Shown: in pieces, positions 37,296-59,732 of the stretch | Layout: each line of letters opens with the position of its first letter | Numbering within the stretch: the first letter of the stretch is position 1 | Assembly: GCA_022813865.1 (NCBI GenBank) | Contig: JALDZX010000054.1 | Coordinates: forward strand, 1 to 64,000 | Direction: 5' to 3' | DNA length: 64,000 nucleotides | Source: Xylographa opegraphella | Taxonomy: Eukaryota | Translations under genes and position numbers: made by a program | Notes under the pieces: generated by a model | Database searches by the model: none | The model's input: the letters and a program-made list of their open reading frames with translations, nothing else | What the model was told of the DNA's origin: nothing

Positions 37296-38799
37296 GCTGG
37301 CCCGCCCAGGGAAGCGGCCACCTCTTCAGGTGGCGCTTGCTCGATCGACCTGGGAACACCTCTTACGGGTGGATGGCAGGAGTGTGATCCGATCTCCTCA
37401 TCCGGCTATGATATCTGCAGCCGCGTGAAGCTCGAGGGGTCAGGGTTGCGTGATATATAGTGAGTGCTCTGGCGGAAGCTCCAGAAGGATGTGGCAGCCC
37501 TAATGATACGGGCCGGCGCTGTGGGATGTAGAAATTCAAGGAGGGACTAACGCTGGATTTCAATTGGAAGGGGATCTCAGCAACGGATTGCACCCTAGCA
37601 CTCGACCCCACGAGACGCCATACACGGTCGTGGAAAGGAGATGTTCGTCACCGTGCGTGAAAAAGAAGGAAAGCAGGATCGTGGGCTGAGGTTACACGAG
37701 ATGGGGGACTGTCAACGTGTGAGAAGCAAGCGAGGATCCGTCCCGACAATCAGTTTCTTTCCCTCCCCCGGGGGGGGTGGATGGGCGGGCCAGGCCCTGG
37801 GACCATCACGCTAAGCACGAGTCAAGGGAGTGTGGCCTTCACCCTTTCCAGCGGCATTAGTGGCTCCAATGGACAAGGATTAGGGGGGTTTGGGGNGGGG
37901 GGGGGGGGGTGGGGGAGGAAAGAGAGCGCCCGCTGGGTGTGCTGATCAGTCAGTTACCAAAGTACTACTGCAGTATAGTATGTACGGTGTATGCCCCTCG
38001 ACCACTCGTCTGTCTGCAGGGGGCCAGCGTCTTGCATCCACGCGCGCCTTCTCCCCCCACCAGAGACGAAATCCAAGAGTCGTCGGGACATCCCCATCCC
38101 CGTCCCCATCGTTTCACCACGGACAAGCCTCCACTCCCATTCCGTGGCCAGTCACGCGCAGTTCCAAGGGCCCAAATGTACCGATCATGCAAGTGCGGGT
38201 TGCGGGTTGCGGGTTGTGCGGGTGTATAACGTTGGAGAACGTCCCATCCATCTTTCCCACATCCTCAGCATCGGGTGGCGTGGCACGACTCTGGAAAAGG
38301 CTACTGATCCTTCGGGGAGACTAGAACGAATAGGGTCCCGTGCTGTAAACTACCCCGCCACACGCCCCACTAACATCCCGGCCCCCGGGAGTCCTCCCAA
38401 CTGGCAGCTGCACCTAACCCAACCGCCTAAGGTAAGATAGACACAAACGCCCCCTCCCCCATGCTGGCCACGATCCAGGCTCACAATCCACCACGTCAAT
38501 GGCACTTCACTCATGGTGCATGGCTCATGAGAACATGAGACCATTTGGCCTGGATGCTTGCGACATGCAGAATGGCTGACAATGGCTGACGATGGCTCGA
38601 CGATGATGGCTGTCTGTCCTTGGTCCGGCTGCTGGCCAACCCACCGCACTGGACCCGGCCCGGCATGCTAACTTTAGCTTCCGGCAGCGAAAGCCTGTGG
38701 GCGGGATCGGCGGGGTCGGCTGTCGAACGAACGGCCCCGGACGGAAAGCTTGCGTCGAACCGGCCCTCACTTTGACCCCAAAACTCCCTCTTTGCAACT

Positions 38800-39154
38800 T
38801 GCAAAGCCTGCAAAGCCTGCAAAGCCTGCAAAGCCTGCAAAGCCTGCAAAGCCTGCAAAGCCTNNNNNNNNNNNNNNNNNTGCAAAGCCTGCAAAGCCTG
38901 CAAAGCCTGCAAAGCCTGCAAAGCCTGCAAAGCCTGCAAAGCCTGCAAAGCCTGCAAAGCCTGCAAAGCCTGCAAAGCCTGCAAAGCCTGCAAAGCCTGC
39001 AAAGCCTGCAAAGCCTGCAAAGCCTGCAAAGCCTGCAAAGCCTGCAAAGCCTGCAAAGCCTGCAAAGCCTGCAAAGCCTGCAAAGCCTGCAAAGCCTGCA
39101 AAGCCTGCAAAGCCTGCAAAGCCTGCAAAGCCTGCAAAGCCTGCAAAGCCTGCA
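38800..39154. repeat. Perfect 9-bp minisatellite (tgcaaagcc)n, at least ~37 copies, spanning an assembly gap (N 38864-38880)
   Basis: Directly visible. Confidence 0.97.
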
Positions 39155-39388
39155 GCGACGCCGAGTCAGGATGGCAACAGCCATCAAGAGCCAGCACCAA
39201 TGCCGTACACCGGCGGCCGTTCTACCAGTACATCCGTCTGCGCGCAGCTGCGCATGTCAGTCCCTTGGTGACCGCCCACTCCACCACACCACACCGTCCA
39301 ACCAAATCTTGCAATCCACACCCTCCCCCCACTTCTCGCCCGCCAACCTCGCCTCGATCCTCTCGACTCTGCTCTGCTGTACTTGACT

Positions 39389-41482
39389 CTACGTGACGGA
39401 GATGCTGATGATCTTAATGTCCTCCTCCGGCTTCTCCTTGTACACCCGACAATTCTCGATCTTATGCACCACGTCCAAGCCCTGCACCGCCCGTCCGAAG
39501 ATGGTGTGCTTCTTGTCCAGCCACGGCGTTTTCTGTCACAACACGTCAGCAGCCCCCCTTCGCCAATGCTTGTACAGAATGAGAGCCCGGCCGACGAACG
39601 AAAAACTTACTTCGGTCGTGATGAAGAACTGGGACCCGTTGGTGTTGGGCCCGGCGTTGGCCATGCTGACCGTGTAGGCCTTGTCGTGCCGCAGCGTCGA
39701 GAACTCGTCCGCGAACTCCGTGCCCCAGATGCTCTCGCCGCCCGTGCCGTCGCCGAGCGGGTCCCCGCCCTGGATCATGAACTTGCGGATCACGCGGTGG
39801 AAGATGGTGTTGTTGTAGTAGCCCGTGCGCGCGTGCGTCACAAAGTTCTCCACCGCCTTCGGCGCCGCTTCGGGGAAGAGGCGGAGGTGGATGTCGCCGT
39901 AGCTGGTGTGCATGATCGCCGCCGTCCCGCTCTCGGCCGCTTTGGCTTCCGTCGCCGGGCGGGAGCCGAGCATCTTCGGCTTCTCGTTCTGCACATCCCT
40001 CGTGCCTTTGCTGACGTCCTCCTCGTTCGTGAAGATGTAGAACCGGACCTTGCCCGACCCGGTCGACACCAGCATCGGATCCCTCTCCTCCGCTTCCTGC
40101 AAGAGCGGGTTGGCGCTGGCGGCCATCTGGGCAGTCACAACCACTTTCTTCTGCGGCTGCCCTTGATAGATCGCCAGGTGCAAGGACCGAAATGGCTCGT
40201 CCCTTCCGTACACTTTGACCACGCGGTTGGTGAGCGTGTTGATCACCTTGGTCCCCAGCAGTGAGCCGTAGAGGATAAAGTGCCCGGACTCGTCGAAGAT
40301 GACGTTGATCTTGTTCTGCAGCGCAGGGTTCTCCAATTCTCGTTCCACCGCCAGGCGTCGTCCAAACTCAACGTCCTCGAGCTTCTGCAGCGCAGTACCG
40401 GCCTGCTGCATTTCTGTCAACGTAAGTATGGACTCATCGTACGTCCGGTACAGTTTTCCGGTCGCGAAATCGAACACTCGGATTTTCCGATCGGGGAAGG
40501 AGAAGGTGGCGAATTGCGAACCCGATGTCGAGATCGTGATGGAGGACGGTAATGACTTGGATTTCTTGAACTCAAATAGATTGGTAGAACTCTTGTACTC
40601 GAACACGTTGTCGGGCTTCTCGTGAGTCCCGCCCGGCCTCCAATACTCTATCATTCCATTTTCATCTCCCGAAATGACACAGTCATATGCTCCGTTATAA
40701 GCCATCACGATCACAGGACTCCGGTGTAGATCAGGAATCGAATCGACGGGTGTCGGGGAGAGACCCTGTCCATCGTAGATGTTGATGACGTGTCCAATCT
40801 CCTCCGATACTGCAAGCAGAGGCTCTGAAGCACCACGTCTATGAACCCAGCATATCGACAGAGGAATAGACTGTAGCTGTAACATGGCCAAAAGATCTAC
40901 CAACGACTGTCAGCCGCACGGCAGCTCCCACTCCCCGACGAAATCCTACATACCAAACGTAACAACATCAAAGATCTTGACAGTATTATCAACCCCCGCA
41001 GTTGCGAAGCTCCTCCCATCCTGACTCACGGAAACACTCCTGATTTCGCCGGCATGCGCCTTGAACTCCTTGACAAACTCGATCCCGACGGCATCCTTCT
41101 TCCAGAACTTGACCACGCCATCGACCGAGCTGGTGATGAGGAAATCCGTCAACGGGGCCATGGTCACGAACGACAGCTGCTCCTTGTGCATGAGCGACTT
41201 CGAGTACCGGCCCGACGACGGCAGGGCCGAGATGTATAGCTTCTCGTACGGGAGCTTCCGCCGTTTCTTCTTCGGAGCCGACGAGGGCAAGGCCGGGCCG
41301 ATATCGGAGGAGGAGGAACTTTCTAGATGTTCCTGGCATCAGTCGTGCGTTCGGATGTGTTTCGTGGTGGAGAGGAGCTTACCATTGCCGTTCGCACCGG
41401 TGACACCATCTCTATCAGCCCCTTCTAACTCCTCACGCGGTCGCTTGGCAGGACGGGGCGACGCAGGTTCGTTGGCCGACAT
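39389..41482 (-). CDS. cyp15: WD40-repeat peptidyl-prolyl cis-trans isomerase (Cyp15/PPWD1), multi-exon
   Basis: [30 protein letters not shown] repeats. Cyclophilin domain [70 protein letters not shown]. Stop at 39389. Confidence 0.95.
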
Positions 41483-45495: not shown

Positions 45496-48240
45496 TTACA
45501 CATTGTCTTCCCCGCCACCATTCGAAGCATGATGAGTACCGTTGGCACGGTTTTTTGATACCCATGCGCCTTCTAGCGGAGTAATGAGGCTCGGGTTGAT
45601 GAACCTCAAACCCGTCTGCTCGCTTGTGTCAACGACTCTGCCCTCCTCGGTGTCATTGTCGAACCTCGATTGACTGAGAGAGATCACTTCGGCGTCATCA
45701 TCTCGATGTAAGCTTCTAAGAGCGATGAATTTCATCAAGGGGTCATAAGACCGGGTGTAGAAATACCCGAACCAGACCGTGCTAGCCAGTAAGGGTATCA
45801 CAAGTAATGAGCGTTTGATAGCCGTAAGAAGCGCTAGCTGGCCAGCCATAGCTAGTTGAAAGACCAGCAGTCCGACGATTACACGGTGGCAGATGATTGA
45901 CCAAGCTCTTCCTGTGGAGTGCTTACGGTGATCCATGGCATACAGGAGCTGGTACTTGTATATGAAGCTGCCAATGATGAAGTAGATCAACCCGAAAAGC
46001 GTCACGAGCTCACCTTTTGGTAAGATGCTGTACACAATGCACACAATGAATATGAAAAGCGTCTGCGGTAAGAAGAATCCATAGCTGAACATTGGAGGCT
46101 GGACGAGTTCTGCATAATCTGAACATCAGGTTAGTATCAAAGCAGGTGCTGTACATATTCAACTACGTACCTCTTGGGGTCTTTGCTCCCATAAGGTACA
46201 CTGGATAGAGTGACACGGCACCGAACTCAAGCAATCGGAATGGAAAGAGTCCCAGTCCTTGTAGGATGATAAGATTCATGTAGAAAGGAGCGAGCTTTCC
46301 AAGGGCTTTGGCGAGAACCCACGATATTCGGGACAAGTCTCTAAGCTGCTCTCCAAGTAGATCTCGAGCTTCAAAGATATTTGAAACTGTTCCGAATACA
46401 GTAAAAACAACAAAGAGATTGAAGAAAGTGAAGAAATAATTCTTCGAGATGATAGACATCTCAACATCGCCTTGCGATATCATACCCTGAAGGTTCGAGA
46501 GCCCTAACGATCACATTAATCCAAATCTGCTGCATGACAACAAACTGGAAGGTACCTACACTCATAGAGATACGGAACAATCACGTTCAATAAAGAGATG
46601 ACCAAAGTCGGTAAGCCAGTCTGTACAAGAGATCGTACAATCTCATGTCTTTCCAGTGCATCGGCAAGGGCAGGAGAAACCTTCCGTATCGTGGCTAGAT
46701 TAAGCAGTGCAGCAATAGCGATGAGCAGAAACCACCAAACCACCGTGAGAAGCGTTACGATTGCCGTTATGGTCCATGCCCTAGTCATTCTATTCGTGCG
46801 CGATAGGTAAGTGTTCTTCCACACAACATCAGCAGGAGCTGGTGAACTATTGACCATAAGTTGCATGGGTTCGGGATCGATGATGGCTTGTACCGCCATT
46901 TGCTGCGATTGAAGATTAGCATGTGCCAGGATAAATTACAGAAAGCACTCACGCATGCTGAAATTGAATCCAGAGTCACGAATGCCAACGGTGTAGGCGG
47001 ATATTTCTTCTTTCGTGCTTCTCTGATTCGGTCATCGAGCTTTCGCAACTTCTCCTCATAATAATCGATCGCATCGATGCTCCGACTTTGAAGATTCATA
47101 AACCCAAACCATATTTTTGTTGTCGGTCGGTCATGAGCGTAACTAGTCACGTGATCCTGCTCGCCATTTGCATGCCCAAGTAAGCCTGATTGCTCATCGT
47201 CCTCGTCCTCATGATCGGTCTCCCGACGACGTTCCCGCGATAATCTTTCCAGGGTCTTAGGTCGATGAAAGCCAAGATGTGCCGTCCATGCTTCCTCGAG
47301 TTTCCTCAGAACGGACATGCGTTCTTTCATCAGGTCATCGAGCTCCTTCCATTCTCTACAAAGCATGACACTCTCGACTTTACCAATCTCAAGCTCCTCG
47401 ATTGTCTCTTTGATCTGCTCTTCACTCCTAAGATGTCTCGGAATGCCGGAAAGACGAATTGTCCGATCGGTGACAGATGAATGGGTGCCAAGATATGTTT
47501 GTCGAATACGAATTATCCTCTTTGTCTCGTTGACTATCAAGTACATAGCTGCAATGCTGAAAAGGTAGACGAAGATAACGTATATCCACAAGTAGTCCGT
47601 CGACATCAAGTCCCCCAAGCCAGGACTCGTAGAATTTTTGTGCTTTTCATTCTCAAAACTTGGCGGCTGTGATAGGGTGCTAGAGGGGGCGAAGGTGGCA
47701 TTGGTAGCGGGAGGAAGGTCAGGCAAATTGTCGGAGGTATCGAAATTCTTGTGGACTGGGTAGATAACCGTAAGACAGAAGAAAAGCACAAATGCTAGAT
47801 ACTTGATGGCCATCTTGAAAAACGCCAAAAACTACACAAAGGGTTGGTCAAGTTGTGATAAGTGGTTCGCAAAGGACAGAGTGATGACCGACCACAAAGG
47901 CATCCAGTCCTGCGGATGCAAGTACCTCTTCCTCCGTGATACTGTATAAAACGGGGATCCATCCGAATGCTGTGTCCGGTAGTTCAGGTAATTTCGCTGC
48001 ATCGTTTTTCTGCCTCTTGCGTGCCGCATAGAGAGCGGTCCATCGTGGCCGCAGGAACTTAGTCAAAGATTAGTATCAAATTCTTGTTGATATGATGAGA
48101 CGTACGCAGAACGTTAGAAAGGCGCTCAGTCCAAGCACAATGGAAATGGTCGCCTGCGTGGCCAAATCTGTCCTGACATGAGTCTGCTGATCCAGCTGAC
48201 CTCGGGTTTGGTTATTCGATGATATCCAGAAGTCCGCCAT
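45496..48240 (-). CDS. CSC1/OSCA/TMEM63 (DUF221, RSN1/PHM7-like) calcium-permeable stress-gated channel, multi-exon
   Basis: N-terminal TM then FLRPRWTALYAARK, FGWIPVLYSITEEEVLASAGLDAFV, TDRTIRLSGIP, LAFVTLDS, SPAPADVVWKN, KNYFFTFFNLFVVFT, YKYQLLYAMDH..STGRAW. Confidence 0.92.
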
Positions 48241-49101
48241 GTTCCAATAATGCAGAAACGTATACTGAGGGTTGCGCTGACACGCAGTTGGATAGGTAAA
48301 GTGCACTGCAAATAGCCTAGCGCGTTCATCCTTTCGAAAGCTTCAATGACGATGATTTGGCGCTTATCCTAGCGGGAGTTTGTCAGATCTGGTCCCCCGT
48401 AGATACCCGAGAGTCCTCAAAAGCCGCTAACGCAGCGTCCAAGACCAGATACCTTAGTTTTCTGTCAAATACTACAGCAACTTCCTACCAACCGCGATGC
48501 TCTTCATTAAACGTCTGTATCTTTTCTCCCGCACGTAGTGTGACATTACTTTCAGAATGCTGTTTTTGTCTGACGAGATGATGGCCTCTCTGTGTATAAA
48601 ATATAAGCCGATGACTTATTCCCAAACACCTCAACAGGAGCTGTACTAAATTACCTTGTAGACTATGGGTATCTTAACACAAGAGATTCCCCCTTGGTAC
48701 CGAGTCCACTTGTTATATTTTTCTCCGAATGGAAACGAACCATGGTTGCTGCGTGATATCTTTATCTTAGCAGCCGGCATCTTCGTTTACTGTTATCTTT
48801 ACACGAGACATACATATTGTTAGAACTTCTCCTACTAGAGGCTCATCCATTTCATACGTATCACAGTCTCAATTAAGCAGCGATGTAAGTTCATTTCGTA
48901 AGCTACTGTCCTGACTAGAGTGCGCACCAGAACAAATGCAGCTTCAAGCCTAGCAAGAACCCACATTTCCTGTTTCCCATTCCGTCCCACATACCCTCCG
49001 ATGGCCCTTGCACCAGAGGAGCTTTAACACCCACCACGAGTAGAGAATAAAAGCTGCAAGCCCACTTAAAGTTCGACTTTTGGCGCATTGGTAAGGAGCC
49101 C

Positions 49102-49454
49102 CTATTCGGAAGCGGCGATAATACGGTGCAAGATGTCGACGTTGGTGATCTCACTAGGTGGCTTGCAGCAGCAGCAAGCGGCGCGGTCTGTCCGTAAACT
49201 ATGAGTAAGAAGCCACCAGCAGTGAAGGTATATACATGTAACGGACCGGTATTGGCCAGCTCCTCAGCGGTGAAGAAGCTCTTGTTGATGGCGCGGCGGA
49301 GGAGGTTGCCGATGGCGTCGCCACCTGATCAGCATTAGGAATGGCCACTTCTGTAAAGCGGAACCACGAGATGGAGGAGCTTACGCTTCTCAGTTGTGGG
49401 AGCAGCCATAGCGAGGGTGGCGCAGGCGAGGAGAATGATGGATGAGAACTGCAT
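49102..49454 (-). CDS. Small secreted Cys4 prepropeptide, 77 aa (candidate DUF3328 substrate / RiPP precursor); exons 49454-49385, 49324-49247, 49187-49102
   Basis: Spliced translation MQFSSIILLACATLAMAAPTTEKRGDAIGNLLRRAINKSFFTAEELANTDRAACCCCKPPSEITNVDILHRIIAASE*. It has a classic signal peptide ending AxA/AP and a KR site. Intron 1 is GTAAGC..CTAAT..CAG (60 nt); intron 2 is GTCCGT..CTCAT..CAG (59 nt). Codon usage is strongly C-ending in all three exons. Exon 3 frame depends on the weaker second donor. Confidence 0.75.
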
Positions 49455-51888
49455 GTTGGCGTCGGCTTTGAGATAGACCCTGAAGAAGCTGAGGCAGTAG
49501 ATGCTGAAGTGGGTGATTGAAAGATGAGATGCTTTGAAGACTGTTGGATGATGGTGGAAGAAGTGAGCAAGAAGCTGTCTTTTATCTCTTTTCTTCGAGA
49601 CTTTTGCTCTCTATGCTTCTTTATGGTATACTACTGCACAGTCGTTTCTCCTCGTTGCTGCGCTACTGTGTGGCTATTGTTGCTTATCGTCGAAAACATC
49701 ACGAGAACAGCACTGGAACGGGAGAGAGCCTGGTGTGTCTTGGAAGAGAGAACAGTCCAGCCCATCAATACGCGAAGCTGTAATAGCAAATGCAAGTGAG
49801 AATTGTATTTGGAAGGCCTGCATGCGGCTACATCCTTGCAATGTAACGTTGAAGGACAGTGCATTGTCAAGTTCTGAGTCCGCTTCGACGGCTGTGAGCT
49901 GGCTCATGCAGTCCTCGTCGAAAGCATCTATGTGTTCGACCGGACTTTGGACTGAAGTAAATTCTAGAACAGCCTGACTGCGGCTAAGCAGACCGGTTGT
50001 AAAAGCTTACGCTTTTGAGAAGCTGACCCACGGTAAACACCTTCTAGAGAACTCCGTCCATCCTTCCTGTCTGACACTGGCTATCAAAGGTACAGCTTTT
50101 TTGTAACGTGATATTCTCCTCTTCCCATCTCTCATTGTTGTTTGAATGCTTCTAATATAATGCACGGATACCTTGGTGGTGTGTAGCATATGTTCTTCTT
50201 TTGTAGCGATTTGACAGGTGGCATTTCGCGGATGTCAAGCTCTACTCCGCTGCACAGATGACCTAGACTGTTCTGCTGTTGATGTTGACACGGAATGAAA
50301 GCACATATGATGCGGACCCATGGTACATGAAAGCAAGAACTAACTGCAGACCCGAGCTAAAAGGTAGAAAAAGATGTGGGTCACATGGGTAGCGAATGTC
50401 TTCAATTATGTAGATACAGAACATATGCAGTAGCCTTAAATTCATGAAACAGCTTCAGCATAAAAGTAAAATGCCAATTATACAGCTAGTGATTTCATTG
50501 TCTGTTAGTGTACGAGGACACCCTTCATAAGATAAATATCGAGAATAAAGGTCCACGGTTTTCCATAATTGGGTACCAGAACTTGGTCTTTACATATACA
50601 TTCGTGTCTGTGCAGCCGCTTGCTTGTGTATGGTAAAGCTATCTACTAGGAAAGCAAGGATCGCAATAGACTAGTAGCCATAAAGGCACTATACACGATG
50701 TTCAGGCCTATCGTGGCTCGGACATAGTGTAGGGACACTAGCGTATAAGGATGACATATAAGAAGCAGGCTAGAGCGAGGCTAGAAAACGACAATGAAAC
50801 TAGAACAGCAGGCGAAAGCGGCGTTATGGAGAATACAAGGTATACATAACAATATGTACGTTGGCGCCGAGCGGGGTCAAACAGAGCATCCTAAGGTACC
50901 TTCAGGAACCCTAGGCGGAGAGGCAAGAGCTAAGGCAGGTTGACAGGCTTGTCCTGCATTGCTGAAAGCCTTGAAGAAATTGTGGAGACAGTCAGGTTCT
51001 AGGTAGACTTGTACATACGTGCATAATCTGCTTCCAATTGATCAAATCAGATGATACAAATTTCGGGGGCCACGCCCAAAGAAGGAGCCTGGCTTGAACA
51101 TCTGCATCTCAACGCTTGCAGGGCGAGGTGCTGTGCGGCTGGCTCAAGAAGCTGCAGGACGAATTTGTGAGGCGGAAGAGTGCGCTGGATGAAGAGCTGC
51201 AGCAGCTATGACGGAGGTATTTCGTGACAGCAACCCAAAGGCACCACACCTTGGAATGTGATACAGGCACACTGTTTGAATAGCGGTATAAGTTATAAGG
51301 ATCCTTCCGACTTTACTACCTGATGCATATCAGTTTACAAGAAGCAACCGGTCACGAACCGGAGCGGGGTTTTCCCCACACTTTCCAGGCACGAGGCTAA
51401 GGTAGGGCTCGGCCCGGAAGGCGGGCGGGAGGCGTGACATTAGCGGTGCGCTACGGAGGATCCCAAAGTAGACTAGACTAGTCTAGTGCATGGCTTGCTT
51501 CGACTCTTCGAGGTGTCTTGTGAGTTGCGACCACACTGCTCTTTGCATGTCAATGTACCGCACCGACATGAAGCTCAAGGATGTGTCAGCGCACCTGACT
51601 GCTAGCACTTTCTTCATGGCATTCTTGTACCCTTAGCGCGCCAGACAATTCGTTTCAACGGCCTCATAATCCGGCATCCAAAATGTCAGTTGATAAGCTT
51701 GCATATTTATGCCAGCTTGAAAATTGCAACCGAGTGCCTTCAGTGGCAAATTGATAAAACTAAGAATAGAGAGTGAACTTACTGATATCCGTCCGAGTCG
51801 TATATGCCTTTGAACTATCCCCCTCGCTTTCTGCTCGTCTGCCATCGTCCCCATCTGTTCGTCCAATTTCCAGAATCTCTTGTCCAAA

Positions 51889-53094
51889 ATGAAGCCTGTC
51901 TATGAATCTCTCTCGTCCAAAGAAGGCAACTCCCTTCTAGAAGAGAAGCTCTCAGAGACATCAAGCGATGATGTTTTCCCCCCTGCCTATATTCCTACTA
52001 TCAAGCGTCGTGAATGGTGGCTGCGCATTTGCGCTCTCCATGCTACCTTGATCGTTTGCTATTGTCTTATCATTACTGCAGTAGTTACCCGATATGTTAC
52101 TCACAAAGAGAATCTCGGGCCGGGTCTGATATACAGTAAGTCTGCACTGCATTATTGGTAAAGCAATGGCTCATTTCGGTCAGCTCCTGCTCGACCAGTG
52201 CTGGGTTATCATTTGCGCCCGCCGATTCCTGATACCACCAACAAATTGCATGGAGATCCTTTTTTTGGAGACCCATCCCCCGAGCTTGACATGCGTTGGA
52301 ACATTCGGCTTGAGTGTAAGACTCAACATGCAACGTCAGAACCTCTCAAAATTCTGCCACTGACAACTTGCAGCTGCCTCCATACGACTGAGTCAAGAAG
52401 AGTTCAAGAAGTACAACCAGAGTAGCGGTATTCTTTTAGGTGATGGCTCAGGAGATTATCTTGCAACGCCGACCATGTACCATGATCTACACTGCATTGT
52501 AAGACGGAACCTATCATTTCTTTCCTCCCACACTTGACCCTGCTCCGATATATTAGACCAATTTCTGATATCGAGCAGGAATTTCTTCATCAAAGCATCT
52601 ATCCGGATCATTATTGGCCCAACGATACACCTGAGAAGAAAGAAGGAAGAGCTTATCATGCTCGTTAGTGCTCAAGTCCTGCATGCTCTCATACTTTTTC
52701 TTTTGGTCTCTGGCAACTTCAGCCCTCTATTTCTTGAGTAAATATCCTGGTTCCAGTCTTACAAGCAATAGGTCACTGTCTCCATAATCTCGCTCACTCA
52801 GTGACATGCGGCGCTGATATGAGCATTCGAATCATGCGGTGGCTGCCTGACCAGCTTCTGCCAAATCCAGTTGACCACGAACACGAATGTCGCAGCGAAG
52901 GTGCCATCAACCAATGGGCATATGAGCGTAGAGTCAACACACGAGCGCCCGGGATGCTTGTCCACCCAATACTGGGTCAGTTCGCCATTGAGGTCTCGCT
53001 ACCGAGATGGAGGATGCAATACTGACAGACCTATGTTGCAGGTGAGGTTTTTCCGGATGGCAAGTACAAAGGAGATGATGATGATGATTTGTGA
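51889..53094 (+). CDS. DUF3328 / UstYa-family oxidase; exons 51889-52135, 52184-52315, 52374-52498, 52579-52663, 52772-52975, 53042-53094
   Basis: Five canonical GT-AG introns give one open frame with an N-terminal TM helix (WWLRICALHATLIVCYCLIITAVV), IYTPA, FFGDPSPELDMRW, two HXXHC motifs (YHDLHCIEFL and HARHCLHNLAHSVTCGAD), HECRSEGAINQWAYER and HPILG. Confidence 0.9.
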
Positions 53095-53750
53095 ACGGGA
53101 GTATGTTGAAGACCGGTTGCCGAAAGATAGCTCCGACTGCGATACGTAGCTTGGGACGATCCTTCACAGCCTGATGTATTGGAACAGTGGCTAGTGCGGT
53201 ATATGAATGGATTAGAGCCGAGCAGTGGTTGATGACCATCAGAAACAGATTTTGACTCAATATACAGTACAATGACGATGAATATTCTAATACTGAAAAC
53301 GATATCCTGATCCTTGTGATAAGTACTTCTAACGTTTCCTAGCAGGCGATTGTGCATGAAACTTGGACGATGATACAACAACTGTAAACACAAGGTTCGC
53401 AACAGAGACTAATTCTCAAAAGCAGGCAACCAATGTAGAACCAAGTTAATAAGCTGTGTACTCCGAAGAACCCAGTGTGAATATGGAATTATGGTGAAGA
53501 GAATCGTATCCAAAGCAGAGTACGAGCTGTTCGTTTCTCAGCATAGCTAATCGAGTTCGAAGCAGTCTCTTCTCCATATAATATTCACTCTTTTACCACG
53601 GTACCTTAGGTACCTAGATACCTACCGTACGACGGTCCCAAGCTAAGTGCATAATTATACCGCTAGCCTAGCCTTAGCGCGACGTAAGATCTTGTCGCGT
53701 TGCCCAATCCAGAAAAGTTCCTGCTGCGATTTTGATAATCATTTTTCACC

Positions 53751-55449
53751 ATGGTAAGCTTTCACAATTGAGAACTCATGTTACCAGCTTTACTAACCGG
53801 GTCCAGGCCGCCTTTAATCCCACTCAAATTTTCGGAGACGACGTCACAGAGGAAAAGGGTGAGAATGCAAGACTATCGGCTTTTGTCGGTGCCATAGCTG
53901 TTGGCGACCTGGTGAAGAGTACACTGGGGCCGAAAGGCATGGACAAGATCTTACAGTCAGCGTATGTGTGCTCTCGTTGTATGTCTCAAGTTTTAGTAAC
54001 TCATTCTGCCCCAGATCCACCGGCGAGGTCATGGTCACAAACGACGGAGCTACAATCCTCAAAGCAATCGCTCTCGACAACGCTGCAGCCAAAGTCCTTG
54101 TCAACATATCTAAAGTTCAGGATGATGAAGTAGGAGATGGAACGACATCAGTGACAGTCCTGGCTGCTGAACTCCTAAGGGAAGCCGAGAAGCTAGTGGA
54201 CAAAAAGATACATCCTCAAACTATCATCGAAGGTTACCGAATAGCAAGTCATGCAGCTCTTACAGCTCTAGAAAAGACCGCTGTGGATCACAGCAACGAC
54301 AAGGCAGCCTTTCGTAACGATTTACTGGCTATCGCGCGGACTACCTTGAGCTCAAAAGTGTTGAGCCAAGATAGAAATCAGTTCGCTGAGCTTGCCTGTG
54401 ATGCGGTTCTCAGGATGAAGGGGTCTACAGATCTCACGCATATACAGATCATCAAGAAGGCGGGTGGAAAGTTGAGTGATTCGTACTTGGACGAAGGATT
54501 TATCTTGGACAAGCGAATCGGCGTCAATCAACCTAAGAGATTGGAGAATGCGAAGATCTTAGTGGCCAATACTGCCATGGACACTGACAAGATCAAGATC
54601 TTTGGTGCTCGAGTGAAGGTGGAGTCTACAGGAAAGCTAGCAGAAATGGAGAAGGCTGAGCGAGAAAAGATGAAAGCTAAGGTGGAAAAGATTAAGGCGC
54701 ATGGGATCAACTGCTTCGTAAATCGGCAGCTCATCTACAATTGGCCAGAACAGCTGTTCTCAGATACTGGGATTATATCAATAGAACATGCCGACTTTGA
54801 CGGTATCGAACGGCTAGCACTTGTTACAGGAGGAGAGATCGCCTCGACCTTCGACCACCCTGAGCATGTCAAGCTTGGGCACTGCGATCTGATAGAAGAG
54901 GTGATCATTGGTGAAGATACACTTATCAAATTCTCAGGGGTCGCGGCCGGGCAAGCATGCACTATCGTGTTGAGGGGTGCAACCGAACAATTACTGGATG
55001 AGGCGGAGAGGTCACTCCACGATGCTCTAGCAGTCTTGTCGCAGACAGTCCGAGAGCCGAAGACAACACTTGGTGGTGGATGTGCAGAAATGGTGATGGC
55101 GAAGGCCGTGGATCAAGCCGCGCGGAACGTGGCGGGAAAGAAGGCAATTGCAGTAGACTCATTTTCAACTGCACTCCGACAGCTCCCGACTATCCTGGCC
55201 GACAACGCTGGGTTGGACTCGAGTGATCTGGTGGCCAGGTTACGAGAAGCGATCTACAAAGGAATGACCAGCTCTGGCCTCGATTTGATGACTCCCGGAG
55301 GCGGAATTGCGGACATGAGAGAAATGGGCGTGATCGAAAGCTACAAACTGAAGAGAGCCGTTGTAAGCTCGGCCTCTGAGGCAGCGGAGCTGCTGCTACG
55401 CGTCGACAACATCATCCGATCAGCGCCTCGAAAACGCGAGAGGATGTAG
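53751..55449 (+). CDS. CCT2: T-complex protein 1 subunit beta (CCT chaperonin); introns 53754-53806 and 53962-54014
   Basis: [44 protein letters not shown]-like [25 protein letters not shown]. Confidence 0.96.
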
Positions 55450-56165
55450 ATCCGTCATCATGGAATAATGCAACAATATCTCAAGCGGAGTTTGGAGCAC
55501 GTAGAGTATCAGGAAAAGCTAGGATTTCCATAGAAAGATACCATTTTGCAACAAATGACGAGCCTTTTCGTTCTCCACCACAACGGTTTTCTTGTTGGAA
55601 TGCATTCTGTGCCGCCAACCCGAGTGATAGCTTGCGTGCCGCCAGGAGACATAGCCAAGGATCACCCAGATCCAACAATACTGACGGTTGTTGTGACGAA
55701 AGCTTTCACGGTCCTCGCACCTTATCGTAGCAGAAGCCTTCGAAACACCGATGATGCTCTCGTAGTGCGCATCAGTGAGTCGAGAGAGTCGTGAGGGGCT
55801 GAAGTACAGTTTAAGGTGAAAACAACATGTTTAGCGGGCCGGCAAGCGCATAGTTGCTGACTGGCGCCCTTCCCAGATGTGGTCTAGAGGCTGACGCAAG
55901 ACTAGCCGCTTCAATCAGCAAATCCCTTGGCCCTGAGTTCCACAAAATTCCTCCCCTTCCTGCTGACTGCGCCTTCCCACCATCATGCCACCACTTGGCT
56001 CTTGCTTCCTCTTATCCTCAAAATATCGATACCCAATAATCGTGGAAACGTCTGATTGATCATATTAGATGACTGCTTGTGACATTGCTGTCTCACGACA
56101 TCTGTCGAATTTCCTTTGCGTCGGTGCCTACGCAGGCCGCAACATTAGCCTTGTAGTTTATCAGC

Positions 56166-59100
56166 ATGACGCGTCGGCGAGCCGGCGCTGGAAGGATCTT
56201 TCTTTCCACCATAACGGCATCGTTCTTTCTTATACCAATTGTGTTGGCTTCTCAGAAGCAGGACCAGCAAGTCTACAACAAATCCCCCTATGAGCGCGGG
56301 TCGGGATCGGATGGGGTCGCACCTTCCGAATCTTCGGTGGGATATCAGAATGGAGCAAAGATTGACACCACGAATTACAGACATTTGAAAGACACTACAG
56401 TGGATTCCAGAAAAGCGAGCGCCATCGCGACCTTAGCTCCGGCAGCAGAGCATGCCGTTCGAGCACTACGACCTGCACAAGGATCCGGCAGTTCTGCCGG
56501 ACTGTCATCGCTGCTTAATGCGCGTTCTTTGCAGGACTGGGAGGTTGAGGATTTTATACTCCTGGCGACCGTTGATGGATCAATTCACGCAAGAGATAGA
56601 AAAACCGGGGCTGCAAGATGGGCATTGGAGGTCGACAAACCGATGGTGGAGACAGTCTATCACCGTGAAAATAAATCTACTATTGATGATTACAGGCCAG
56701 AGGATGAGTTTCTGTGGATTGTGGAACCGAGTAGGGATGGGGACATTTATATCTACAATCAGGGCCACAATGGTGGGTTGCAACGATTGCGTTTGACAGT
56801 GAAAAAGCTCGCTGAAGAGCTTTCGCCATATGCTGGTGAAGACCCTGCAGTGGTCTATACAGCCGAGAAGAAAACTACACTCTATACCGTGGATGCTGGA
56901 ACAGGCCAGATCACGAAAATGTTCAGCTCCCGTGGTTCCACCCTTTCTGACGACCAAAGTTGTCGGAGAGTAAATGGTCTTGAGCTACTAGACGAGGAAG
57001 AGTGCGGTACCAGTGGCTCTTTGGTTTTGGGTCGGACAGAATACACTGTTGGCATCCAGCAGCGGGACACAGCTGAACCAATTTGCACCATGATGTATTC
57101 CGAGTGGGGCCCCAATAATCGTGACAATGACCTCCAAAATCAATACTCTTCGACTATGGATCAAAAGTACGTGTACTCTCGTCATGATGGAAGCATATTT
57201 GGGTTCGATCACGGCCGAGTCGACGAGGAAAAGAAATTATACACACAAAAGCTCCTTTCGCCTGTGGTGAGGGTGTTTGACGTTGCCCGTCCTATGGTGT
57301 CTGACACTCGGGATCCACAGCTTGTGATCCTGCCTCAACCGGTCCCGCCGATTGAAAGTGACAATTCTTATGGCAACATTGAGGATCGGAACAGGATATT
57401 CGTCAATCACACAGAAGCTGGTGGATGGTACGCGATGTCTGAGAGCACTTATCCATTTGTCACTGGTGGTGCTCCGCGAGCACAGTGTTACAACAAGGAT
57501 TGGCTTGAAATGACTTTCACGACTCAAGCACTTTCTCTAGCACAACGCCAACAGGCCCTTGTCGGTGTTCATTCCATCTCTGAAGGACAGACAAGACGAG
57601 ACAGTTTCATGACGATTTCTGGACCCCCGCCTTCAGATGGGATTAACGACACTCCCTTTGGCCTCGCACCTGGTATACCGCCTTCGCCTTCTTTACCTAT
57701 TCTCGGCAACAGCTATATCATCGGCAGTGCTGCTGCATTTTCCACAGATATTATCATTGCTTGCATCGTTATGATGGTCGTAACGTTCATCTCGATAAAT
57801 CGCAGACCGATCACGAAATTGATCAGACGCAATCTGGAACTAAAACGCGTCTTTCCGGAGCTTGAAAACCCACTTAATTCTGTTCCGTCGTCTCCAATTG
57901 TCAGCGAGGCGCCTTGGGCGGAGAGATCGCAATCAACTGTTTTGGAAGAAGTTGAGGAGATTCTCGAACAGAACGACGGCGAGCTCACTCCAACTATTTC
58001 TAGGCGTAACACCTTACTCGAGGCCCCACCAATGACCCGCAGTCGATCTGGTTCCCTCGATGATGATCGAGGACGGGCGAAAAGCGGACCACGCGTACGA
58101 ATCATTGAACCATCCCCTTCACCGGCGCCGGAGGAGGATGAAGGTCTCAATTCCCCTCAACCAGGAAAGAAGAAGGCCCGTCGCGGGTGTAGGGGAGGAG
58201 CAAAGCATAAGAAGAAACGTAGCAATAGCAAACATGAAGAGAATGATAGTCTTGACCAGACTGTTGAGGAGATCATGCAGATTGCGAAAGAACCTCAACT
58301 GGAGCCGGACGTCACGGAAGTTGCCACGCTTACCAGTAATAGCCTTGCTGATGTCTCTGGCCCTGTCATTCAGATCGGACACCTTAAAGTCCAGACAGAT
58401 ATCATTCTTGGCTTTGGCAGTCATGGTACTGTGGTGTACAGAGGTTCTTTTGGAGGAAGAGATGTTGCTGTGAAACGTATGCTTCAGGAGTTCTACGATA
58501 TCGCATCACATGAAGTCGGGCTTCTGCAAGAGAGCGACGATCATCCCAACGTGATTCGATATTTCGACAAAGAGTCGTCTGGCGAATTTCTATATATTGC
58601 TCTTGAACTATGTCCTGCCTCGTTGCAAGATGTCATCGAAAAGTCAGCAAATTACCCTGCTTTGATTGGTGCCGCTGGCCTAGATCTACCCGACGTCCTA
58701 AAACAAATTACTGGTGGCATTCGCTATCTTCACTCTCTCAAAATTGTTCACCGAGATATCAAGCCACAAAACATTCTCGTTTCGTCCCCAAAGAAGCTCC
58801 TAACTCATCCAGAAATTTTTCAGCCTCCTCGGTTCCTCATTTCAGATTTCGGTCTCTGCAAAAAGCTTGAAGGCGATCAAAGTTCATTCCGTGCTACTAC
58901 TGCTCATGCGGCGGGTACGTCCGGTTGGCGAGCACCTGAGCTTCTCGTGGACGACGACGTTAGCACTCCGCTAGCAACGCCGACTCTTAATTCGAGCACG
59001 AATCCATCGGCTCACTCCAACTCCGAGCCATTGATCCTTGATACCCAGACAAATCGACGTGCAACCCGCGCCATTGACATCTTCTCTCTAGGATGCGTTT

Positions 59101-59732
59101 TCTACTATGTTCTGACGGGCGGTAACCATCCATTCGATCGTGACGGAAAGTACATGCGTGAAGCCAACATCGTCAAGGGCAATTACAATCTCGCCGATCT
59201 TGCCAATCTGGGAGATTATCAATGGGAAGCAAAGGACTTAATAGGTCGTATGCTCAGCCATCAGCCAAAACTCCGTCCAGATGCCGGTACCGTCCTCTGC
59301 CATCCTTTTTTCTGGAGTGCAGAGGAACGTCTCGATTTCTTGTGTCACGTGTCCGATCAATTTGAATTCGAGCCTCGCGATCCTCCTTCTGCCGCTCTCA
59401 GTGTACTCGAATCATACGCTCCGGCGACCCTGGACGCATGTGGACATGATTTCATGCGGCTGTTGCCCAAAGAGTTCCGAGATACCTTGGGCAAACAGAG
59501 GAAATATCAAGGCAACCGATTATTGGATCTCTTGCGGGCGCTACGGAACAAGAAGAACCACTATGAAGACATGCCGGAGTCGGTGAAGGAGAAAGTCGGG
59601 AGCTTGCCGGCGGGGTATCTGGGATTCTGGACTCGGAAATTCCCGGAGTTGTTGATGGGGTGCCATGCTGTGATTCTGGAGTGCGGGTGGGAGAGCAAGG
59701 ATCGTTTTCGGAGGTTTTATGGGGTAATTTGA
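56166..59732 (+). CDS. IRE1: ER stress sensor kinase/endoribonuclease Ire1, intronless
   Basis: Signal sequence, lumenal domain (LLATVDGSIHARDRKTG), TM segment, kinase LGFGSHGTVVY..VAVKRML..HRDIKPQNIL..ISDFGLCKKL..GTSGWRAPE, and KEN RNase domain LLDLLRALRNKKNHY. Confidence 0.96.
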   Translation: MTRRRAGAGRIFLSTITASFFLIPIVLASQKQDQQVYNKSPYERGSGSDGVAPSESSVGYQNGAKIDTTNYRHLKDTTVDSRKASAIATLAPAAEHAVRALRPAQGSGSSAGLSSLLNARSLQDWEVEDFILLATVDGSIHARDRKTGAARWALEVDKPMVETVYHRENKSTIDDYRPEDEFLWIVEPSRDGDIYIYNQGHNGGLQRLRLTVKKLAEELSPYAGEDPAVVYTAEKKTTLYTVDAGTGQITKMFSSRGSTLSDDQSCRRVNGLELLDEEECGTSGSLVLGRTEYTVGIQQRDTAEPICTMMYSEWGPNNRDNDLQNQYSSTMDQKYVYSRHDGSIFGFDHGRVDEEKKLYTQKLLSPVVRVFDVARPMVSDTRDPQLVILPQPVPPIESDNSYGNIEDRNRIFVNHTEAGGWYAMSESTYPFVTGGAPRAQCYNKDWLEMTFTTQALSLAQRQQALVGVHSISEGQTRRDSFMTISGPPPSDGINDTPFGLAPGIPPSPSLPILGNSYIIGSAAAFSTDIIIACIVMMVVTFISINRRPITKLIRRNLELKRVFPELENPLNSVPSSPIVSEAPWAERSQSTVLEEVEEILEQNDGELTPTISRRNTLLEAPPMTRSRSGSLDDDRGRAKSGPRVRIIEPSPSPAPEEDEGLNSPQPGKKKARRGCRGGAKHKKKRSNSKHEENDSLDQTVEEIMQIAKEPQLEPDVTEVATLTSNSLADVSGPVIQIGHLKVQTDIILGFGSHGTVVYRGSFGGRDVAVKRMLQEFYDIASHEVGLLQESDDHPNVIRYFDKESSGEFLYIALELCPASLQDVIEKSANYPALIGAAGLDLPDVLKQITGGIRYLHSLKIVHRDIKPQNILVSSPKKLLTHPEIFQPPRFLISDFGLCKKLEGDQSSFRATTAHAAGTSGWRAPELLVDDDVSTPLATPTLNSSTNPSAHSNSEPLILDTQTNRRATRAIDIFSLGCVFYYVLTGGNHPFDRDGKYMREANIVKGNYNLADLANLGDYQWEAKDLIGRMLSHQPKLRPDAGTVLCHPFFWSAEERLDFLCHVSDQFEFEPRDPPSAALSVLESYAPATLDACGHDFMRLLPKEFRDTLGKQRKYQGNRLLDLLRALRNKKNHYEDMPESVKEKVGSLPAGYLGFWTRKFPELLMGCHAVILECGWESKDRFRRFYGVI

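Follow-up and report, generated by a model that had tools for sequence, protein, structure and literature searches.

Two genes lie head to head in a stretch of 64,000 nucleotides from the fungus Xylographa opegraphella (contig JALDZX010000054.1; this whole stretch is referred to below as the window), one encoding a putative UstYa/DUF3328 oxidase and the other a 77-residue peptide with a run of four cysteines. The question raised by this locus is whether the oxidase acts on the peptide, as assumed in the original prediction, which saw in the pair a minimal two-component RiPP system, or whether each gene serves a purpose of its own. The analysis presented here leads us to consider that both genes are real and that they are most likely independent neighbours, a reading to which we assign a probability of roughly 0.55.

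The peptide gene occupies positions 49102-49454 of the reverse strand, and its three exons of 70, 78 and 86 nt join into 234 nt that encode 77 residues:

49454-49385, reverse strand: exon 1, with the start codon at 49454, a signal-peptide-like stretch and KR, whose Arg codon is split by intron 1
49325-49384, reverse strand: intron 1, 60 nt, GTAAGC...CAG
49324-49247, reverse strand: exon 2, with the end of the propeptide, RR and the start of the conserved unit (AINK...EELANT)
49188-49246, reverse strand: intron 2, a phase-1 intron of 59 nt (GTCCGT...ACAG) whose position is conserved among family members
49187-49102, reverse strand: exon 3, with CCCC and the conserved C-terminal stretch, ending in the stop codon at 49102-49104

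The predicted product is identical, letter for letter, to a public NCBI hypothetical protein of X. opegraphella (P0001; exon 3 matches at 100%), so that the gene is already annotated and the splicing first proposed for a signal-peptide protein with KR and RR sites turns out to be exact. The gene had also been called hidden, which is true only in the sense that it escapes a stop-to-stop list of ORFs; left unspliced, intron 1 leads to a stop after 15 further codons (ORF 49335-49610). The KR pair stands at residues 23-24, RR at 33-34 and CCCC at 54-57. Downstream of the 43-residue unit that follows RR there is no basic site, the unit running to the stop codon, and its composition includes two Phe, no Tyr and no Trp. 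The secretion signal was judged by hydropathy only: the 10-residue window starting at residue 6 has a mean of 2.76, residues 6-15 being hydrophobic and followed by small residues.

Homology searches identified 37 related proteins at E <= 2.5e-4 among 6,954 candidates, and a comparison with 1.84 billion proteins gave four representative homologues at E <= 3.2e-9. The named sources are lichen fungi and one sooty mould, with members in Agyrium, Usnea, Pseudevernia and Polychaeton, and the family, as delimited by sequence similarity, extends from lichen-forming ascomycetes to at least one dothideomycete. Its members have in common a signal peptide and an invariant Arg, together with an intron at a conserved position and a C-terminal exon that carries CCCC. 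The N-terminal hydrophobic stretch recurs in 36 of the 37 members (P0007 starts later), whereas the residues immediately before the unit are RR in 28/37 and a single Arg in 9/37, P0036 having been scored by eye; this Arg is invariant in an alignment of 22 sequences. Most homologues lack intron 1, their first exon reading as 51 uninterrupted residues. Metagenome fragments of 51 aa read into the donor at the position of intron 2, and P0011 retains intron 2 in frame. The four cysteines are found in all eight members possessing the last exon, while the other 29 end at the conserved intron, read into it or are misframed. Identity over the whole 43-residue unit amounts to 50-60% across orders and into another class, and homologues at 48-59% identity confirm the CCCC frame; across four full-length members, CCCC and 23 other columns are invariant. 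Most homologues have a Tyr beside the conserved Phe, unlike the X. opegraphella unit. In the Polychaeton citri homologue a second unit is begun after KTKR, and the fragments P0036 and P0039 duplicate only a short FTE-ELAN stretch.

The peptide family matches no Pfam family, and four motifs of the family have no match in the literature searched; it is thus previously unrecorded, and the CCCC peptide belongs, as far as its sequence indicates, to a conserved but undescribed group of small, putatively secreted peptides. The earlier prepropeptide reading agrees with the hydrophobic N-terminus, with the position of the invariant Arg at the edge of conservation and with the one homologue that has a second unit after KTKR, and the 77-residue product does look like a secreted prepropeptide. 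AlphaFold2, run on seven sequences, yielded a mean pLDDT of 60.0 and a pTM of 0.36 for the peptide, values too low to base a fold search on; its best ESM Atlas score (0.78) lies under the lead level.

Could the peptide be an artefact of gene prediction, the (TGC)4 run being non-coding or read in another frame? Such a suspicion may arise from the shortness of the exons and from the slightly negative hexamer score of exon 3, a coding score trained on 13 long ORFs of the window that was uninformative for the spacer between the genes and could not even tell the confirmed UstYa exons apart from background. However, homologues from five other genera align with the peptide from end to end, gapless around the splice junction, and keep both CCCC and the C-terminal stretch; the position and phase of the intron are conserved as well, and two alternative splice readings lack a stop in the stretch translated and resemble nothing. 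In our view this conservation refutes the artefact, which we rejected as extremely improbable.

The oxidase gene is located at positions 51889-53094 of the forward strand. Its six exons have a spliced length of 846 nt, encoding 281 residues and a stop, and its five introns, of 48-108 nt each, all follow the GT...AG rule:

51889-52135, forward strand: exon 1, putative cytosolic N-terminus and transmembrane helix
52184-52315, forward strand: exon 2, 98% identity to the X. vitiligo orthologue
52374-52498, forward strand: exon 3, with HDLHC, the first HXXHC motif, at its end; Pfam UstYa at E 6.6e-4
52579-52663, forward strand: exon 4, ending within the second motif (HAR/HC), which is split by intron 4
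52772-52975, forward strand: exon 5, with the remainder of HARHC and two further conserved Cys
53042-53094, forward strand: exon 6, acidic tail and stop, with the same ending in orthologues

Exons 1-5 were scanned singly against Pfam, in which the UstYa profile PF11807 has a gathering cut-off of 25 bits. Exon 5 matched it with 32.9 bits (E 7.8e-8) over positions 168-220 of the 220 in the profile, exon 3 reached 20 bits and stays under the cut-off, and exons 1, 2 and 4 gave no UstYa match in this exon-by-exon scan. With exon 5 above the cut-off and the orthologues P0002 and P0003 at 108.2 and 123.9 bits, respectively, the HMM comparison upholds the assignment to DUF3328. These orthologues, from Xylographa vitiligo and Trapelia coarctata only, were two of five candidates in a search with exon 5, a single 67-residue exon queried against longer proteins with exact shared 5-residue words required; they share 94% and 67% identity with that exon, and the X. 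opegraphella UstYa protein was not among the database proteins retrieved. Their annotated models each retain a different intron, and each confirms the junction missing from the other's model. At intron 4, the Trapelia orthologue (P0003) reads HTRHC without interruption. Public models of the relatives of this locus are faulty for both genes, the two UstYa orthologues having a retained intron and one peptide orthologue being misframed.

The two motifs of the spliced oxidase begin at residues 163 (HDLHC) and 195 (HARHC), and the top 19-residue hydropathy window starts at residue 47 (mean 2.36), likewise in both orthologues. Splicing, hydropathy and motif positions therefore confirm the claim of a membrane-anchored protein with these two motifs. 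From its sequence, the oxidase is assigned to the UstYa/DUF3328 family with both HXXHC motifs, and its probable topology comprises an N-terminal tail, a single membrane helix and a lumenal catalytic domain. By family membership and by analogy with CctR, whose copper dependence, dimerisation and oxidase activity are established (PMC12435403, partial text), it would be an O2-dependent enzyme with two coppers, dimeric and facing the lumen. It shares with CctR, ApnU and AprY, to which it is compared here by description, the Pfam family, the motif pair and the N-terminal tail with its membrane helix. Another shared feature is a pair of additional Cys towards the C-terminus, which could form dimer or intramolecular disulfides; CctR and ApnU differ in acting on non-ribosomal products (PMC12435403, partial text). 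A sequence search of the PDB gave no solved structure related to the oxidase (best E 0.9).

The start codons of both genes are divergent, and the distance between them agrees with the value of about 2.4 kb originally given:

49455-51888, no strand: spacer of 2,434 nt in which no further gene was detected

None of the 32 scanned stop-to-stop ORFs lying wholly inside this spacer (28 of 40-89 aa and 4 of at least 90 aa) has a Pfam match. The spacer contains no Rfam family and no tRNA, and its repeats are short and two-copy only. Recognisable genes elsewhere in the 64 kb include a CSC1/RSN1 channel, which adjoins the peptide gene, a CCT chaperonin, IRE1, an F-box protein, a cyclophilin-WD40 protein, velvet, a proteasome gene and ATP11, among others, and all of them are, as judged by sequence, of housekeeping types. 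A Pfam scan of 120 ORFs of the window (46 + 74) revealed no tyrosinase, methyltransferase, cluster-type transporter or other tailoring gene. The original prediction had further excluded any transporter or transcription factor, and this part of the claim does not stand: transcription-factor-like genes of the velvet, AFT and NF-X1 types are present along with the CSC1/RSN1 channel, although these are ordinary conserved genes and not cluster-type ones. At 33.5 kb, a weak tblastn match (E 0.029) pointed to another copy of DUF3328, but this candidate had no Pfam support and was rejected. Scans of metagenome contigs with the peptide and the UstYa alignments gave 597 and 598 pattern matches, respectively, with none confirmed in either case, the window's own peptide falling outside the two patterns used for the former; a collection of genome contigs from prokaryotes only contained no match to a degenerate DNA pattern made from the CCCC exon. 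These blanks carry no weight for or against linkage of the two genes.

In the dikaritin loci (ustiloxin, phomopsin, asperipin-2a and victorin), a UstYa protein that combines a membrane helix with the HxxHC(x)nHxxHC motif pair is likewise encoded beside a peptide with a signal peptide and dibasic sites. On this model, the UstYa copper oxidase would modify the adjoining peptide in the secretory lumen as a minimal RiPP-type pair, by hydroxylation, a C-H crosslink or four-Cys chemistry, with Kex2 acting before or after, and the product would be a modified peptide of about 43 residues or a shorter fragment. Several observations fit: the divergent layout, which matches that of known dikaritin loci exactly and has no recognisable gene in between, an intact oxidase with both motifs, an N-terminal secretion signal at the level of hydropathy, KR and RR sites before the unit with the processing Arg at its edge, and the homologue whose second unit behind KTKR resembles a Kex2 repeat. 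Furthermore, asperipin-2a uses a single DUF3328 gene, and the frequency of DUF3328 genes peaks immediately next to the precursor (PMC7329392, partial text), and lichen DUF3328 clusters have been reported without repeat precursors, a single-core precursor being suggested (PMC12048977). We nevertheless regard this model as unlikely. Known dikaritin precursors hold many tandem short cores, usually with the Tyr through which the ether crosslink is made, whereas here one long and wholly conserved unit with CCCC has neither Tyr nor Trp in X. opegraphella. The literature searched yielded no DUF3328 enzyme that modifies Cys, the adjacency is known from one genome, and the peptide family occurs in genera for which the exon-5 search retrieved no oxidase orthologue, which is weak evidence. 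The surroundings also differ from those of dikaritins, since the 64 kb contain housekeeping genes but lack a tyrosinase, a methyltransferase and a cluster-type transporter; this lack is not disqualifying, since such genes are dispensable and asperipin-2a does without several of them.

Two other groups of fungal precursors invite comparison. The Kex2-processed repeat proteins, or KEPs, resemble the CCCC family in their secretory signal and in the basic sites that bound a conserved unit (Umemura 2020, PMC7329392, partial text). KEPs are, however, defined by repeats, while CCCC members hold one unit, apart from the Polychaeton homologue and the P0036 and P0039 fragments, and nine of the 37 have a single Arg at the site instead of a dibasic pair. 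AcaA, from which the fungal disulfide-bridged RiPP acalitide is made, is similarly a precursor in single copy with a length of about 80 residues, and oxidation of its cysteines has been attributed to the general ER machinery; in this comparison, made by description only, it differs in being matured by a dedicated peptidase and not by a DUF3328 enzyme, and in having its Cys spaced apart (PMC10840396).

The placement of DUF3328 genes relative to precursors is one pointer to independence of the two genes, the reading that we prefer. DUF3328 genes had been said to stand typically next to a precursor; this is overstated, as a Kex2-processed repeat protein is encoded no more than 15 genes away for 31.8% of 9,399 such genes and not for the other 68%, and DUF3328 enzymes also tailor non-ribosomal peptides (Umemura 2020, PMC7329392; PMC12435403; partial text of both). 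Pointers in the same direction are the presence of one unit with neither Tyr nor Trp, the housekeeping neighbours, the long 2.4-kb spacer and, weakly, the retrieval of oxidase orthologues in X. vitiligo and Trapelia only against the wider spread of the peptide family. On the other side, genes for small secreted propeptides make up, by estimate, a small share of fungal genes, so that a chance neighbour of this kind would be uncommon for any DUF3328 gene, which counts against independence.

If the genes are independent, signal peptidase would remove about 17 residues of the peptide and a Kex2-type protease would cut after the invariant Arg, which is part of RR in most members, releasing an acidic unit of about 43 residues with four adjacent cysteines in its middle. 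With the help of the general secretory machinery, these cysteines would then become paired in disulfides or bind a metal. The conservation of the entire unit is more in keeping with a ligand or a mini-protein that folds than with a short variable core. The oxidase, for its part, would act on another substrate, and the adjacency in one genome would reflect coincidence or a retained gene order.

A functional link need not make the peptide a substrate. Given the requirement of DUF3328 enzymes for two coppers and for an input of electrons, the CCCC peptide might instead be an accessory to the lumenal copper enzyme, as a Cu(I) carrier or a thiol electron donor. CctR binds two coppers per monomer and requires reducing equivalents and O2 (PMC12435403, partial text), and the adjacency of the genes and the invariance of the four adjacent Cys and one His in the four aligned full-length members are in line with such a role. 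The proposal is nonetheless purely inferential and, in our opinion, very improbable: a processing site and the lack of a retention signal suggest export of the peptide and not residence with a membrane enzyme, and other DUF3328 systems function in heterologous hosts with no such peptide (PMC12435403, partial text). Taken in its broadest form, namely as a novel and much reduced type of DUF3328 system, in which the lumenal two-copper oxidase acts on a single-copy, conserved 43-residue peptide with four adjacent Cys as its reactive centre or the peptide feeds it copper or electrons, a coupling of the two genes is conceivable but doubtful. Chemistry on a substrate with four adjacent Cys has not been reported for DUF3328 enzymes, and either version, if true, would provide the first concrete partner for lichen DUF3328 loci.

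Such a partner would be of value, as a survey of lichens predicted 987 RiPP clusters, marked by DUF3328 and mostly singletons, and the two clans examined in depth contained no conserved repeat regions (PMC12048977). A conserved and easily synthesised peptide beside an intact UstYa gene is a cheap candidate for that position. Independently of the oxidase, the CCCC peptide is widespread in lichen-forming fungi and may therefore have a part in the symbiosis, whether in signalling, metal binding or defence.

In Xylographa opegraphella, a lichen-forming ascomycete (Lecanoromycetes), a public hypothetical protein has exactly the 77-aa sequence that the peptide gene yields when its three short exons are joined:

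49454–49385, minus strand: peptide exon 1
49324–49247, minus strand: peptide exon 2
49187–49102, minus strand: peptide exon 3

Two other readings, an acceptor 11 nt upstream and an unspliced intron 2, were tried and discarded; neither meets a stop within the translated stretch and both give products that resemble nothing. Among 1.84 billion representatives searched exhaustively with HMMER, four were relatives (E 1.6e-16 to 3.2e-9), and a profile search returned 37 family proteins among 6,954 candidates, all with E ≤ 2.5e-4. Members occur in Agyrium rufum, Usnea florida, Pseudevernia consocians, Xylographa trunciseda and the dothideomycete Polychaeton citri, and the other 31 of the 37 come from further assemblies. 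Most of these 31 measure 48–65 aa and stop where intron 2 of the window lies, a few codons into the GT donor; we read these short members as first exons of this one fungal gene that prokaryote-style gene finders had picked out. The CCCC motif and the conserved C-terminal stretch are present in all members that include the last exon (8 of 37), and the alignment of four full-length sequences has 27 invariant columns, including the four Cys, the Arg-Ala-Ile that opens the conserved unit, and one His. Because relatives share the CCCC exon, these columns and the position and phase of intron 2, the gene model is confirmed by comparison, beyond prediction, and the same conservation leaves a gene-model artefact with a practically negligible probability.

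Every member beginning at a true methionine has a hydrophobic N-terminal stretch, and family-wide conservation begins directly after an invariant Arg. This Arg follows a second one in 28 of the 37 members, whereas the other nine have Ser, Ala, Asn, Gly or Pro in front of it (the residue of the metagenome-derived member P0036 was read by eye). The peptide would thus be a secreted propeptide, from which a Kex2-type protease would cut a 43-aa acidic unit. The Polychaeton citri protein P0005 (145 aa) has a first unit followed by KTKR, behind which a second one begins before the sequence enters an apparent unspliced intron, so two or more units may be encoded there. In the public model of the X. 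trunciseda member P0007, which starts late, intron 2 is read through into the wrong frame, hence an Ala run in place of CCCC. In P0036 and the likewise metagenome-derived P0039, a short FTE-ELAN stretch inside the unit is duplicated. No Pfam family matched any of the seven members scanned, the ESM Atlas gave no match above 0.78, and AlphaFold2 modelled the peptide with low confidence (mean pLDDT 60). No paper was found for four motifs of the family in a literature search that covered few subscription journals, "undescribed" meaning not found there.

The oxidase gene comprises six exons, which join to 846 nt:

51889–52135, plus strand: oxidase exon 1
52184–52315, plus strand: oxidase exon 2
52374–52498, plus strand: oxidase exon 3
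52579–52663, plus strand: oxidase exon 4
52772–52975, plus strand: oxidase exon 5
53042–53094, plus strand: oxidase exon 6

All five introns (48–108 nt) start with GT and end with AG. When scanned exon by exon against Pfam UstYa (PF11807, cut-off 25 bits), exon 5 scored 32.9 bits (E 7.8e-8) and exon 3 scored 20 bits (E 6.6e-4), while exons 1, 2 and 4 gave no UstYa match. Searching for longer proteins with exon 5 gave two matches among five candidates, from Xylographa vitiligo (P0002, 94% identity) and Trapelia coarctata (P0003, 67%), which score 108 and 124 bits against PF11807. As this query returned no X. opegraphella protein, the oxidase is apparently absent from the public protein set. Each public orthologue model retains one in-frame intron, and since these introns differ, each model confirms the junction missing from the other. 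The resulting inserts are of 36 aa in P0002, splitting the second HXXHC motif, and of 28 aa in P0003, directly behind the first. The spliced product carries HDLHC at residue 163, HARHC at residue 195, two more cysteines towards the C-terminus, and a hydrophobic helix at about residues 47–65 in keeping with the predicted membrane anchor. Its C-terminus is an acidic run of five Asp followed by Leu (53078–53091), and the orthologues have similar acidic tails. The oxidase gene is an intact, true member of the UstYa family.

The original prediction, that a DUF3328 oxidase is divergently paired with a putative peptide substrate, is confirmed as an observation in every checkable detail and partly supported as an interpretation: the identities of both genes are upheld, and the peptide is a candidate substrate. 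Of the two products, that of the peptide gene already figures in the public set, whereas that of the oxidase gene apparently does not.

Among 120 stop-to-stop ORFs of the window compared with Pfam, the recognisable genes are of ordinary cellular types:

45499–48342, minus strand: multi-exon CSC1/RSN1-type calcium-permeable channel gene (RSN1_TM, PHM7_cyt, RSN1_7TM), adjoining the peptide gene directly downstream
53678–55446, plus strand: CCT/TCP-1 chaperonin subunit, beyond the oxidase gene and co-oriented with it
56157–59729, plus strand: IRE1-type kinase-RNase, likewise beyond the oxidase gene and co-oriented with it
After the oxidase gene: AFT-type factor
In the window: RhoGEF, BAR, NF-X1, ATP11, acyl-CoA-type ligase, cyclin, proteasome subunit, hydrolase, fungal-rhodopsin-domain protein, velvet, cyclophilin-WD40 protein and F-box protein

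The same scan found no tyrosinase, methyltransferase, P450, NRPS, PKS or cluster-type transporter. In a simple-sequence region (38514–39393), several reading frames stay open on either strand, with weak, below-cut-off matches to Plasmodium histidine-rich proteins; the region contains a 17-base N run (38864–38880), and a lone N occurs at 37896.

We favour the reading that the two genes are independent neighbours, with a probability of about 55%; a small share of the probability goes to none of the readings considered. That the peptide is the oxidase substrate in a RiPP-type pair seems doubtful. Their layout is that of dikaritin loci, nothing recognisable was found inside the 2,434-nt spacer, and DUF3328 genes are most frequent right beside precursor genes; yet, in the same study of 1,461 fungal strains, 68% of DUF3328 genes have no repeat precursor within 15 genes (PMC7329392). 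A lichen-genome survey that includes X. opegraphella (Supplement 1) describes DUF3328 clusters with signal-peptide and Kex2-site genes in which repeat precursors were not found, and puts forward a single core as a possibility (PMC12048977). It counts 987 predicted RiPP clusters across its genome set, and its account of signature genes suggests that many are DUF3328-marked; if so, DUF3328 genes would be common in these fungi and some chance neighbours of this kind would be expected. Further against a substrate, the peptide has one long unit conserved from end to end among orders and even in a second class, the X. opegraphella unit (four Cys, one His, two Phe) has neither Tyr nor Trp, none of the papers listed describes DUF3328 enzymes modifying cysteine, and the neighbourhood is one of housekeeping genes. 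The DUF3328 family also tailors non-ribosomal peptides (PMC12435403). No species among the search returns had annotated forms of the peptide and the oxidase together. Oxidase orthologues were retrieved only from the Xylographa–Trapelia group, whereas the peptide family is wider, which is weak evidence because of the exon-5 search method.

Quite improbable, and speculative in that it draws on adjacency and composition, is an accessory role in which the lumenal peptide would carry Cu(I) or give electrons to the oxidase. The peptide has a row of four thiols and also a conserved His, and CctR, a characterised DUF3328 enzyme, showed that such enzymes have two coppers per monomer and require a supply of electrons (PMC12435403). 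A tie of the CCCC peptide to a copper oxidase is possible and attractive, if unproven; that lichen fungi have a conserved family of CCCC peptides is the solid new result.
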